A stretch of 64,000 bases of DNA, from positions 682,001-746,000 of the forward strand of contig OX597830.1 of NCBI GenBank assembly GCA_951406725.2, read 5' to 3'. The notes beneath the pieces were generated by a model. The model was not told where the DNA came from. It did not search any database and saw nothing but the letters and a program-made list of their open reading frames with translations. A program made the translations under genes and the position numbers. Origin of the DNA: Octopus vulgaris. Taxonomy: Eukaryota. Below are positions 28 to 42,686 of the stretch, piece after piece (position 1 is the stretch's first letter; each line of letters opens with the position of its first letter).

Positions 28-248
28 GAGAGGTTTTCTTTAAGTATTGGAAATAGTTTTTGAAAAAGTTCTTTGAAAAAGTTTTTTTTAGCTGCTATTT
101 CTAATGAGTTCAGTATGCGGCAAAGTAATTTATTTTACTAAGCCCTTTTATATAATGTAATAATTTGAATTCGCCTTAAATGGTCCCTTTGTATACTGAA
201 TACTTGGTGAAATTGATTAATTAATTAATTTTACCCTCAATTGTTGAA
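28..248. mobile_element. Terminal fragment of a (TA)n-inserted, hammerhead-less repeat family (PLE pseudo-LTR-like), internally inverted
   Basis: 28-145 is the reverse complement of 42489-42592; 178-248 matches 42615-42686 directly; ends in (TA)n. Confidence 0.65.
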
Positions 249-1029
249 ATTATATATATATATATATATATACATACATATATATACACACGTATGTATG
301 GGATACATGTTTGTATGATGGTGAAAGATAATGTTGGCGAATCAGAGACGCATCAGAAAGTGGCATCGAATGCCTCACTCTTTCTTCTGCCTCAAACTAA
401 ACTCCCCTGACCTCAACGTTTCCTTTTCCTGTTTTGCTTCTTCGTCTTCTTTACGGCCTCTTCTTCCTCCTCCTCTTCCTCCTACTACTTATTTTTTCTC
501 CTTCATCAACATCACAGTCTTTTCTTTAATGCATATACACTCACGCGAACACACACATACATACACACTCGATTACACTTATATACATACACACATAGAA
601 ATGTGTTTTTGTATGCAAGTATACACGCATGCACACATATCTGTATGCATGTCCGGATGTGTATATATAAGTGTATGTTAGTGTGTGCGCGCGCGAGCAG
701 GTGTTTATATATATATATATATATACAAGTTCAGCAAAATTTAGATTCAAATGAATATAGTACTTAAGTTGCATGCACCAGCATTTTGTATGGTGTTATC
801 CATATAAATCCATGGGGTGATTATAATCACAATAAGCAACGAGAATATCTTCGGTAATTTGGTACGATCGTTTCTCGCTACATCATTTTATTAAACATGT
901 TGAGCAATCATCAGCCATTTACAGAAGTTTTCCATTAATACATAATTTTCATATTAATTGATAACATTATAGAGAGGGTAAATATATAGACAGAGATGTC
1001 GATTTGAATTTTAAGAACATTAAGGTAGT

Positions 1030-1260
1030 AGAATTTATCTTCTGACGGAAGAATATTCTTTAAGTTATTTTGAACTGCTAGAAGGTGGAGAGGTATATTC
1101 AGTTGAATGGAGACAAGAGATTTTCTATTTATAGAAATAGGGGTGAAATAAATGTGAAAAGTTATTCCTAAAGAAATTAAAGTAGAGAGGGCGTTATAAT
1201 GCCCTAGAAGCTGTTTACTGCTATTTGGCGAACAAATTTTGTATCAAGAAAACAAGGTCA
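1030..1260 (+). pseudogene. Very degraded RTE-like reverse transcriptase remnant
   Basis: Reads IKVERGV..P*KLFTA, resembling RGVRQGDxxSPKLFTA; heavily decayed. Confidence 0.3.
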
Positions 1261-3229
1261 ATGCTAGATGGTCAAAATGATCACCTATATACCAAAAAGT
1301 TATAGAGAATACAGAGATTCCTTTATACTTATATAGATCAGAATTATACTTAGCTAGTATTATTTTGATACGTTGGATTAAAGGAAAAATTTTGGAGAAA
1401 AATCGATCATTTATTACGAGTAGGCATAATACTCAATAACTGTGGACAAAAGTCTTATTAAGAAAGTGAATATATTAGGAGTCAAATTTTAGAAAAAATG
1501 GAAAAGGAGTAATCAAGATGAATAATTTTCTTAGGTTTAATAGAAGGTGATTTATTTTTATGAAGAGAAGTAATCAAGAAGAGTAAATTTCTCAGATTTA
1601 GTAGATAGTGAATTGTTATTAATGAATTAAATTAAAGAACCTGTTAGACATAATATTTACTACCCGCGGAGAAAAGCTAATTAGTTAGGTAAAAAATATC
1701 CTGGGTTAATGATATATTAAGAAATGGAAATGAGGTAATCAAGATGAACTGAGTAGTTTCCTAAGGGACATAGAATTTATACTATTTAATATAGGAGATT
1801 ATCAAAAGAAAAAAAAAGAGAATGTAATTCTAAATATGCAATGAAGTTATTTAGTAATCTATGCGTGTTGTATATATATATATGTATATATATATCTTTT
1901 CGAATGTGATTCTAACAGTTTTTACCATAAAACACCAAATATCTGGAATCATCTTTGGAATCGCGCTTCCCCTGGCAATTATTTGGCGATTTCTCTGTTA
2001 TTCTCGTCGGTAAAATTTACTAAATTTGTTGAGAAAGAACCACAGAAGAAAATATTTTATTGCAATGAGGAAAGGAAGTCAGCCGTATTAATTCGGCCTC
2101 CTCACTCTCTCGCTCTTCTCCTTCCTCTTTCTCTTCCTCCGCCTACTTCTCCCGCATTGACAAAAAGTAATTAATTACAATAACAACAAACATAAAAAGC
2201 CCGAAGAGAGAACTACCACATGTAACAACAGCAACGGCGCATAAGCTGCTGCCCAAAATATGATTAACCAGATTGTTTGTGGTTCCGTTGCTGTTGTTCT
2301 TTATAAGTCACCCAAACTCTAATTAATACGTTGGATAACGCTGTTGTTGTGTAATGGTGGGGTGGGCGCGGTGTGTGAGAGCAAGAATTATTCAGGTGAG
2401 GTGTCTGTCTGTGCTTCACGTATGCAACTTGTTGATAAAGACAGCAATACCTTTAGACATAGGCTGCTGTGTGGGGCGGTCTATTCTTTCCGTATGCAAT
2501 CACAATATATATCTACATAAACAGTTTACAGTATATACCACATGATCTTCTCTGTAAATAACAGTATCTAATGACCTTATGCAATATGTAATCTCACCAA
2601 TATTTATATGTAGCTATATAAAATTTATTTTATACGGCAACTTGTGATCTATAGTAACGTTGTTTACATGTCTGAAGTTTTTTTGTTTGTTTACGGTATG
2701 GTGTGGCACAGGAATTTACATGTAACTTAGTGCAGAACAAATATCACGAGTCGTGTCCCCCACAAGTGGAGCATGACCGGGGATTTGTTATTCCCGCGGA
2801 TATGCATCAGTGAAATATGCATACACACACACACACGCGCGCGCGCACACACACACACACATGCACACGCACACACATGCACACACACACACACACACAT
2901 GCACACACATGCACACACATGCACACACATATTTATGATGACACTCGCAAAGTTTTCTTCAGCAAAATCCTTTTCCCAATGCAATGAATAACATGAACCT
3001 TTGATAGAAGTCACTGGTGACACACGGTGACATCAAAACCTGTGCCGAATCCTTTTTGCCACGCAAATATTACTTCCTCTTGTATAAAATTAAGTCACAA
3101 TCACTGATATATGAGAAGAAAGTAAATATAGCAGTAAAAGAACATTTGATGCATTACACGATTCTAAAAATGTGTTCTTGAATTAGTAATTGAAGCTAGG
3201 TCAGAGCATGGCCCTCAACTTTGTGTTGA

Positions 3230-3395
3230 GAATTACGTGGGACCTTGGGCAAGTGTCTTCTGCTATAGTATTGGTCAAACCAAAGGCTTAAAAATCAAAT
3301 AAGTTCTGGAGACGATTCTTTCTACTAAAATTTTTCCAAGGTGGTGTCCCAGCATGGCCGCAGTTTAATGACTGAGAAAAGTAAAAAGTAAAAAA
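3230..3395 (+). mobile_element. Deleted copy of tRNA/CORE-type SINE (family of 18821-19220)
   Basis: ccttgggcaagtgtcttctgctatag core plus ccagcatggccgcagtttaatgactgagaaaagtaaaa tail. Confidence 0.75.
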
Positions 3396-3766
3396 CGTAA
3401 GATCACATTTATTTATATGTTTGGTTTATTATTTAGATTTTAGCTGTAATTTGACTGAGGTTGGGCTGTAGTCTTCATCTGGTTGTGCGATCACAAACAA
3501 AAAGATCCGACGTTGATTTGCCCTAAGCAAAAGACTTTCTGATGGGTTACTAGAGTTGCGCATATGACTCTCTGGGGTGATTCTCTTAAATAATACACAT
3601 AAGAAGGTTGATGGACGTGTCGTTTGTATGTGCTGATAGCTTTATATTGTACTGATAATAGAACAACAGAATACACATTTTGTTAAGCAATAAGAGGTGA
3701 GAGTTAAACACTTCCAGATATTTCAAATTATGTTATATAAAAACAGATGAAAAAGAACAATGCACA

Positions 3767-41483: not shown

Positions 41484-41690
41484 TTTTATTCTCTTACTTG
41501 ATTCAGTCTTTTTGACTGTGGTCATTCTGGAGCGCCGCCTTGAAAGATTTTAGTCGCACAAATCGACCCCAGGACTTATTTTCCTAGCACTTATTCTATC
41601 GGTTTTTGTTCGAACTGCTAGGTTACGAGGACATAAACACACCAGTACCGGTTGTCAAACAGTGGTGCGGAGACAAAGACACAAAGAAAG
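41484..41690 (-). mobile_element. 3' half of a tRNA/CORE SINE split by a PLE
   Basis: Matches the reverse complement of about 19020-19220. Confidence 0.85.
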
Positions 41691-41727
41691 ATCCCCTCCC
41701 ATATATATATATATATATATATATATA

Positions 41728-42168
41728 TACTGCCCTGATAAAACCACCTGCCCCCTCAACAACAACTGCCTACAGAGGGACCTAGTATATACATGTGAGG
41801 TAAGATCAGACCCTGACGATAACAGAAAATCCTACATCGGAATGACGTCAAACAGCTTTAAGACCCGTTGGTACGCACACACACACTCGTTCCGGCGACC
41901 GGATAAATCCAACCAAACTACCCTCGCCACCCACATCTGGTACCTTAAAAGGAACTCCATCCCCTTCAAGACCAAGTGGAAACTACTACAGAAGGCGCGT
42001 TCGTACACAGGAGGCCATACCTGCTGTGACCTTTGCATTTCGGAGAGCCTAGAGATCTTGTTCGCCAAAGGCCCTCTCCTTAACAAGATCTCAGAACACT
42101 CCCCAAATTGCATGCATAAGAATTATGCAAACTACAAGAACTATAGACCTACCCGGCAACCAGATTGA
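41728..42168 (+). pseudogene. GIY-YIG endonuclease domain of a 5'-truncated PLE (Hydra-clade-like)
   Basis: Open frame CPLNNNC...LVY...YIGMT..FKTRWYAH.HSF..T.LA.HIW.LK..W..C.LC..E..LN..SE..C.H; starts directly after (TA)n. Confidence 0.9.
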
Positions 42169-42488
42169 TGACACCCCACCCACAAACCCCCCAATCCCAC
42201 CGTTCCCCTAGCACCCCCGACTACCTTTTCTCCTAAGACCTTTCACATATTGTATGTGCACGCTTGTATATGTGTATCGTATATATGTATAGAAATGTAT
42301 GGGTATAGTAGGAATATACGCATGTATTATGTGTGTGTGTGTATGTATGTAAAAAAAAAATATATATGTATGTGTGTGTGTGTGTGTGTGTGTATATATG
42401 TATATATGTATATATGTGTGTATGCATATGTATGTGTATATGTATGTGTGTATGTATGTGTATGTATATATAAAATATTATATAATTA

Positions 42489-42686
42489 GGGCTTAGTAAA
42501 ATAAATTACTTTGCCACATACTGAACTTTCTAGAAATAGCAGCCAAATACGTTTTTTAGCCTTTTCCACTACTTAAAGAATATTTTCTCTCAGACAATGT
42601 TTACTCAAAAAAATAATGGTCCTTTTACATACTGAATACTTGGTGAAATTGATTAATAACTAATTAACTTTACCCTCAATTGTTGA
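42489..42686. mobile_element. Hammerhead-less (TA)n-inserted repeat terminus, same family as 28-248
   Basis: Two ATACTGAA boxes; ends taccctcaattgttga then (TA)n. Confidence 0.7.

Follow-up and report, generated by a model that had tools for sequence, protein, structure and literature searches.

An apparently undescribed, putatively structured terminus in a hammerhead-less family of Penelope-like insertions from the genome of Octopus vulgaris

Inverted, truncated copies accompanied by an optional tail are the signature of Penelope-like elements (PLEs) (PMC8557442), and in vitro the PLE tail corresponds to the interval between two reverse-transcription start sites located in a stem-loop region (PMC11167929). 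In PAc Poseidon, the one PLE assayed, hammerhead mutants still insert in vitro; cleavage is thus dispensable for insertion, and a substitute for the hammerhead need not itself be a ribozyme (PMC11167929). [quoted passage not shown] Those of the Naiad group have an N-terminal GIY-YIG together with CxC and DKA motifs, and a reading frame that ends in the reverse-transcriptase thumb, near the 3' end; they prefer (TA)n targets and lack a canonical hammerhead (PMC8557442). Two questions stand open in these papers, namely which cis element serves the hammerhead-less PLEs, and what cue leads the PLE protein to start reverse transcription inside the RNA (PMC8557442, PMC11167929). Here we describe three insertions, A, B and C, in a 64,000-nt stretch of the Octopus vulgaris genome (contig OX597830.1 of assembly GCA_951406725.2, positions 682,001 to 746,000; hereafter the window, whose own numbering is used throughout).

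The three insertions represent a PLE-like family that lacks hammerheads and targets (TA)n, and they carry a structured terminus that is real, apparently undescribed and of putative function. The explanation that we favour, tentatively and with somewhat less than even confidence, is that short conserved boxes serve as arms in an RNA fold located at the 3' end, a fold that would bind the PLE protein and set the two start sites of reverse transcription. This provides a concrete, multi-copy and mutable candidate, with predicted helices that span the internal start site. A search of the accessible literature found no description of the motif, although the family itself may already be catalogued in repeat libraries such as Repbase or Dfam.

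Three (TA)n insertions with a PLE-like layout

The paired pattern TATTTCTA-N3-8-TTCRGTAT has four exact matches in the window, compared with none in each of 100 dinucleotide shuffles, and relaxed pattern and profile searches of the window revealed no further family member. The word ATACYGAA on its own occurs 14 times, against 6.9 expected; eight of these lie within the elements, and the six elsewhere are at chance level. The original prediction had treated positions 91 to 42650 as one feature. The three hairpins that it cited are present, as are its ATACYGAA boxes (at 193, 39760, 39806 and 42629), but they are distributed over three distinct insertions into (TA)n. Across 71 nt, A and B share 90% identity, and across the tail and the repeat that follows it they share 85%; they therefore count as one of two independent subfamilies rather than two of three; C aligns to them only via the boxes and the next 35 nt. 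The DNA of the window is AT-rich, microsatellite-rich and of animal type. The matches and the parts of each element are as follows.

96-116 and 39690-39709 (plus strand), 39558-39577 and 42518-42538 (minus strand): matches to the paired pattern, by pattern search; 39558-39577 belongs to the other arm of an inverted repeat at 39520-39750
1-250, plus strand: element A, a 3'-end copy in direct orientation, tail included, which runs off the start of the window and ends in (TA)n
146-154, plus strand: internal TATA terminus of A, the stopping point of inverted copies
39520-39876: element C as a whole
39520-39612, minus strand: inverted copy of C, tail-less, with the motif at 39558-39577, and lacking the P1 5' arm through a 40-nt deletion
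39591-39636: palindrome joining the inverted and direct copies of C
39613-39876, plus strand: direct copy of C with tail, ending in (TA)n; multi-copy in four public runs
39745-39752, plus strand: internal TATA terminus of C
42477-42686: element B as a whole
42477-42615, minus strand: inverted copy of B, tail-less, with the P1 5' arm (42559-42568), hairpin (42509-42547) and P3 (42490-42515)
42612-42686, plus strand: 5'-truncated tail of B, with a ATACTGAA box (42627-42637) and P4 (42642-42674)

Read on the TATTTCTA strand, upstream sequence and hairpin are followed in both A and C by some 30 nt that close with CCCTTTT, then by the internal TATA, the tail (about 100 nt in A and 125 nt in C) and (TA)n. 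The inverted copies of B and C begin at the internal TATA and have no tail, which is confined to the direct copies of A, B and C; the direct part of B is a truncated tail only. All five visible termini adjoin TA repeats or TA-rich sequence. Judged from sequence, this layout matches the PLE signature, and both the PLE-like architecture and the (TA)n targets put forward in the original prediction are supported. In common with the tailed PLE termini of PAc Poseidon and others, the octopus insertions have two close termini, inverted, 5'-truncated copies lacking the tail, AT-rich targets and (as predicted) structured RNA at the start sites; they differ in being without a hammerhead, and in a long-range helix that would bridge the internal terminus (PMC11167929; PMC8557442).

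Among the public runs listed, 20 of 24 contain the C stretch in whole or in part. In four runs, positions 39636-39880 are covered by 475, 203, 451 and 366 contigs, with 45-68 per run less than 90% alike and 58-195 at 99% or more, a spread that identifies C as a multi-copy family; contig depth was not used as copy number, and contigs are uninformative on expression or strand. Among the 32 contig pieces listed, four bridge the internal TATA, with at least 31 letters to either side of it and with 7-13 differences; in two runs, loose contig ends enter (TA)n at that point. Both the tailed and the tail-less states are thereby confirmed in other copies. An interpretation of C as a TA-flanked miniature inverted-repeat transposable element with 70-bp terminal inverted repeats was rejected, since in other copies the tail continues past the right-hand TATA.

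A predicted fold spanning the internal terminus

The 31-nt hairpin of the original prediction contains two 8-nt boxes that pair poorly with each other. Each has a near-perfect partner outside, in the upstream GAAATA box and the ATACYGAA box of the tail, so that the hairpin is part of a fold only and, by itself, would be the wrong construct to assay. Five helices, P0 to P4, are predicted on the strand whose 3' end bears the tail, with the following parts (WC, Watson-Crick pairs).

48-57, plus strand: upstream GAAATA box of A, the P1 5' arm; partner 94-103, 8 WC and 2 G-U pairs
87-125, plus strand: hairpin of A, made up of the P0 5' arm (87-95), TATTTCTA (96-103), linker (104-108), TTCAGTAT (109-116) and P0 3' arm (117-125)
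119-144, plus strand: hairpin P3 of A, with 8 of 10 pairs formed and an overlap with the 3' arm of P0
191-201, plus strand: ATACTGAA box in the tail of A, the long-range P2 3' arm; partner 108-118, 9 WC and 2 G-U pairs
206-235, plus strand: terminal hairpin P4 of A, 13 pairs, 2 of them G-U
39666-39677, plus strand: upstream TAGAAATA box of C, the P1 5' arm; 9 WC pairs with 39690-39698, a bulge and 2 further WC pairs
39681-39718, plus strand: hairpin of C, made up of the P0 arms (39681-39689 and 39710-39718, 9 of 9 pairs), TATTTCTA (39690-39697), linker and TTCGGTAT (39702-39709)
39712-39737, plus strand: hairpin P3 of C, 8 of 10 pairs
39760-39767, plus strand: extra ATACTGAA in C, overlapping a TATA run and a local hairpin, with no counterpart in A or B; likely incidental
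39805-39813, plus strand: ATACCGAA box in the tail of C, the P2 3' arm; 9 WC pairs with 39702-39710
39822-39866, plus strand: terminal helix P4 of C, 10 WC pairs
42627-42637, plus strand: tail box of B, forming P2 with the inverted arm; 10 WC pairs and 1 G-U

P1 joins the upstream GAAATA box to GCTATTTCTA (10 of 10 pairs in A, two of them G-U; 9 WC plus 2 in C; 9 of 10 in B), and P2 joins TTCRGTATG to the tail ATACYGAA box (11 pairs in A, 11 in B and 9 in C). P2 encloses the hairpin P3 and the internal TATA site, after which P4 closes the tail before the distal end, with 13 pairs in A, 13 of 14 in B and 10 in C. When the partner regions were shuffled 5000 times, a P2 partner as good as the real one was obtained 14 times for A, 2 for C and 11 for B, and a P1 partner 32 times for A, once for C and 595 times for B. 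Pair probabilities of P1 to P3 are mostly 0.7-1.0 in A and C; that of P0 is 0.00 in a folding program that allows no pseudoknots.

Two double changes are seen in P2, where an A-U pair of A and B is G-C in C, and a C-G pair of A is U-A in B. P3 keeps 8 of 10 pairs in all elements, and P0 keeps 8, 8 and 9 of 9 (A, B and C), with one double change in each helix. For the closing stem, the original prediction had read G-U wobbles restricted to the TATTTCTA strand as a sign of structure at the RNA level. The wobbles are there (2, 3 and 1 in A, B and C, with no A-C), and the compensatory and G-U changes speak for such structure. In stability, the isolated hairpin stands out from its shuffles in C alone (z of -4.24, against -0.63 in A and 0.35 in B). 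Over all five helices, the tail-bearing strand has G-U at 10 positions and A-C at 3 (hand count; p about 0.05, also by hand), a figure inflated by the delineation of the helices through folding of this same T-rich strand.

Other copies of C provide a second source of evidence: none of 13 substitution sites (those at 3% or more) falls in the 56 paired bases of P1 to P3 (p 0.03, or 0.02 for the inner 149 nt). Two of the 13 are in the pair of P3 that is mismatched; of these two, 39714 T>C (3.6-7.4%) also lies in P0, with no partner change among the variants listed, where short contigs may hide partners. Variants of the C subfamily at 39726-39736, seen at loose contig ends, have AAGCAA/TTGCTT in P3 in place of the A-C mismatch (10 contigs, agreement 0.68), and another has GCAGC in the P0 3' arm (3 contigs). 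These P3 and P0-arm variants are hints that both competing helices are maintained.

The relation between P0 and the remaining helices would admit two arrangements. In all copies the P0 arm, box, linker of 4-5 nt, box and second P0 arm tile without overlap. If P3 opens, P0 could thus persist alongside the P1 and P2 cores in a double pseudoknot; P0 is accordingly modelled either as alternating with P3, or as forming a double pseudoknot with the 8-bp cores of P1 and P2. Without loop terms, the nested and knotted sets have helix energies of -42.5 and -32.4 kcal/mol in A, -39.9 and -25.5 in B, and -38.0 and -40.2 in C, and the outer five pairs of P0 are matched by 12% of random 5-mers in A and B and by 0.8% in C. 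Rfam returned nothing at gathering score and, at E up to 10, nothing beyond hairpin-type families in the case of A and C, with no ribozyme; this negative says little, as the control hammerhead at 19.7 kb (see below) was also missed. ARAGORN found no tRNA.

On the favoured explanation, the PLE protein would bind the invariant boxes of the folded 3' RNA, the endonuclease would cut (TA)n DNA, and the internal UAUA would be looped out by P2. Copies with a tail would then arise by priming at the distal site, and tail-less copies, seen as the inverted arms of B and C, by priming at the looped-out internal UAUA.

A number of observations weigh against this explanation. The sample comprises two independent subfamilies only, so that four compensatory pairs are few, and they were counted without a phylogeny; P1 is weak in B, as its 595 shuffled matches indicate; C folds equally well in antisense (-53.9 vs -52.1 kcal/mol); the count of G-U pairs is inflated; and complementary boxes are inverted repeats in DNA as well. 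No parent open reading frame (ORF) was reached, and the identification as a PLE is thus one of architecture alone, within which a tail of 100-125 nt exceeds the 30-40 bp reported for PLEs (PMC8557442). To these must be added a hammerhead that lies inside the tail of a sister end at 52.0 kb, which means that the slot discussed next is not fixed.

Hammerhead-bearing ends in the same window

A relaxed type I hammerhead descriptor, scanned over the window, returned 12 rows at 9 core positions, compared with 0-5 in 10 shuffles. Five of the nine, at four loci, show complete hammerhead anatomy by eye, and the other four were treated as chance. The five complete hammerheads, all of which an earlier and stricter scan had missed, resemble the Hydra-clade and minimal motifs of PLEs, and three of the four loci are palindromic PLE-like ends with a tail.

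19767 (plus), 19684 (minus), 40010 (minus), 52056 (minus) and 46317 (plus): complete hammerhead cores, by relaxed descriptor and by eye
19550-19850, 39923-40185 and 51960-52423: palindromic, tailed, PLE-like ends with type I hammerheads, cores CTGATGA, CCGAAGA and CCGATGA

Rfam at gathering score missed all three of these ends, and the first even at E up to 10. The hammerhead at 19.7 kb ends about 33 nt short of its internal terminus, and that at 40.0 kb about 30 nt short, both on the tail-bearing strand; the motif hairpin of the present family, on the same strand, ends 28-30 nt before its own. In two of the three sister ends, then, the motif takes the slot and the strand of the hammerhead, in agreement with the suggestion that it stands in the hammerhead's place. 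Within A, B and C no CYGANGA core was found on either strand (the scan covered the tails and, on the upstream side of the internal terminus, 137-150 nt), which bears out, for these fragments, the predicted absence of hammerheads; CYGA is followed by ACU, AAA, AUA or AUU, and never by NGA, whereas the type I core is CUGANGA with the 3-8 pair (or U3-A8, G3-C8). The sequence UYGANAA occurs twice in the upstream repeat of A, without a descriptor match, and the descriptor matched no stem II between the cores with GAAA and NUH after it, the gap between CYGAA and GAAAUA on the antisense strand being only 6-7 nt. Within the fragments, neither normal hammerheads nor stems devoid of compensatory or wobble changes, the two outcomes that would have told against the original prediction, were encountered.

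Compared with the type I and minimal hammerheads of PLEs (PMC4209133; PMC8557442 supplement), the motif is alike in its strand and in where it lies with respect to the internal terminus; the words CYGAA and GAAAUA are shared as well, but antisense in the motif hairpin. The motif differs in having no G8/A9, no stem II and no CYGANGA, and its conserved bases are those of helix arms. An antisense hammerhead remnant, a K-turn, a sarcin-ricin loop and a hairpin ribozyme were dropped on comparison by eye with their consensuses, as were a TATA-box promoter and a splice donor; none of them fits both subfamilies. At the remaining hammerhead locus, 46150-46410, a tRNA-like head (by eye; ARAGORN reported none) is followed by a (TAA)n/(CAA)n spacer and the minimal hammerhead at 46317, and the whole looks like a short interspersed element with a PLE-derived ribozyme end.

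Alternative explanations, the Naiad question and neighbouring sequences

The boxes might act as DNA rather than RNA, as inverted recognition sites flanking the internal TATA, at which the PLE GIY-YIG endonuclease would cut or resolve an intermediate. Box sequences are almost invariant, whereas helices usually covary, and the D. virilis endonuclease required the tail for recognition while PAc cuts AT-rich DNA within its own pseudo-long terminal repeat (PMC11167929). We nevertheless consider this unlikely, given that G-U exceeds A-C on one strand, that P3, P4 and P0 stay paired despite differing sequences, and that A and C are about 20 nt apart in the spacing of their two P2 boxes.

Rolling-circle elements of the Helentron/HINE type, which have a Rep/Helicase partner, end in a comparable way, and ATACYGAA/TTCRGTAT could be taken for their subterminal inverted repeats and P4 for their 3' palindrome. 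Their ends, like those of DINE-1, combine a short box and a distant inverted partner with a palindrome just inside one end (PMC4067079). HINEs have the subterminal repeat 38-60 bp, and the palindrome 8-35 bp, from the 3' end (PMC4067079), and A, B and C agree with this 3' spacing, with about 50-63 nt left between the distal box and the terminus and about 10-15 nt between P4 and the terminus. At the other end the agreement fails: no 5' terminus lies 2-4 nt from the proximal box, upstream of which A and B have about 100 nt of sequence in common, and both boxes sit at one end of the element. The flanks are (TA)n and not TT, and inverted, tail-less copies that stop internally, undescribed for HINEs in the portions of PMC4067079 consulted, are seen here at the hammerhead-bearing ends too. 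A rolling-circle origin is therefore decidedly unlikely.

It is also conceivable that a self-cleaving ribozyme of an undescribed class, with the double pseudoknot P1/P0/P2 as its candidate fold, has replaced the hammerhead. In this version, itself very unlikely, the loop of P0 would consist of the two 8-nt boxes, one pairing upstream and the other across the internal start into the tail, and cleavage would be coupled to transcription of the tail. The hammerhead slot and strand in two of three sister ends, the tiling of P0 arms and boxes in every copy, the slightly better knotted set in C and the high sequence invariance all fit a ribozyme. Yet the nested set leads by 10 kcal/mol in A and 14 in B before loop terms, nearly all invariant bases lie within helices while the linker varies, which leaves few candidate catalytic bases, and 39714 T>C would break a P0 pair unless compensated by a partner change, none being listed. 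Hammerhead cleavage is, moreover, dispensable in vitro (PMC11167929), and we regard a new ribozyme as very improbable.

Conservation might have a part-coding and otherwise neutral origin, with the first box containing the terminal codons and the stop of an ORF of Naiad type, and AT-rich sequence producing the pairings as by-products. The frame of A and B that runs into the first box resembles, by eye, the C-terminus of Naiad reverse transcriptases (RTs), and A or G after TATTTCTA makes a stop in A and B, as in one variant of C. Patterns for the Naiad C-terminus, designed after viewing the translations and applied to the 128,000 codon positions of the window, found A in one of two hits and B in the single hit, with none for the full pattern. 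Both frames are broken, the frame of C does not fit and has no relative found, and coding would account for neither P2, P3 and P4 nor the double changes, making this explanation harder still to credit.

Least credible of all is a telomerase-RNA-like core, in which P2 would be the enclosing helix, P3 the template-adjacent helix and the looped UAUA a template copied repeatedly to add (TA)n: its helix order resembles two boundary types of telomerase RNA, but the likeness, of enclosing helix, adjacent helix, short repeat and distal stem-loop, is one of predicted topology only, the fold here being part of the element's own RNA (PMC4993307). PLE RTs are the sister group of TERT and each terminus enters (TA)n, but copies that stop at the internal site include P3 and everything upstream, so that the RT evidently reads through P3, and hammerhead-bearing ends without the fold also lie within (TA)n. 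Slippage accounts for long (TA)n, which counts further against a template. Either a new ribozyme class or a telomerase-like RNA core in TERT's sister group would, if true, attract wide interest, and both are unlikely on present evidence.

Returning to the favoured explanation of a protein-binding 3' RNA, the parent element might belong to the Naiads, which is possible, although we lean against it. The family shares with them the preference for (TA)n and the absence of a canonical hammerhead; an ORF end near the terminus, if the frames of A and B represent one, would be a further likeness. Cephalopod Naiads are described as long-inactive remnants (PMC8557442), whereas family C has many contigs at least 99% alike. 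Inspection by eye of 48 of the 54 published Naiad consensi, the five from cephalopods among them, showed no boxes in the terminal 220-500 nt; a search for the words in the supplement, in a text with lines cut at 400 characters and line breaks able to split words, produced five hits, of which none was at an end (PMC8557442). Protein searches returned no hits for the open frame of C, for the broken frames of A and B, or for an RT thumb fragment at 36895-37221, and Pfam matched none of four fragments; with queries this short, all are weak tests. Bivalve and hemichordate Naiad 3' ends share another self-complementary motif, GCGGGTG...GGATGCTYAC...CACCTG (PMC8557442 supplement), which suggests that Naiads carry other non-hammerhead structured RNAs near their ends.

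Other PLE remnants lie close by. A C-terminal GIY-YIG fragment at 41731-42168 (plus strand) scores 0.96-0.97 in Atlas, has no Pfam match and is Hydra-clade-like by eye; no hammerhead was found downstream of it. A link between this fragment and B was rejected, as the inverted arm of B faces it as an outer boundary, with about 230 nt of microsatellite in between, and the fragment is an insertion separate from B. At 36672-37400 (minus) and 38514-38819 (plus), a PLE RT thumb-like fragment (by eye) is accompanied by a terminal copy in inverted orientation, the tail being about 45 nt long. No hammerhead and none of the boxes were found there, so that this may be a second kind of hammerhead-less end.

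Beyond the octopus, a pattern scan of metagenomes gave 42 loci, many of them inside long ORFs. None has a (TA)6 run, and none has the closing stem with both outside boxes; their profile scores are at most 17 bits, compared with 52-63 for genuine copies, and about 2-12 chance hits are expected per 1e11 bases. On score, context and expected rate they were treated as chance and not as family members. On the animal-looking contig L005 (185-250) the pattern spans a short hairpin, CTAG and TC, a configuration that we take to be like a Helitron head-to-tail joint; the outside partner boxes are absent and this contig, too, was treated as chance. Viral contigs gave no motif matches.

Two minus-strand stretches of the window, 49989-50585 (without a Pfam match) and 62878-63390, are by eye remnants resembling the restriction-like endonuclease domains of R4/Dong-type long interspersed elements, and 3900-4700 (plus strand) encodes, by eye in translation, a broken Tc1/mariner-like transposase.

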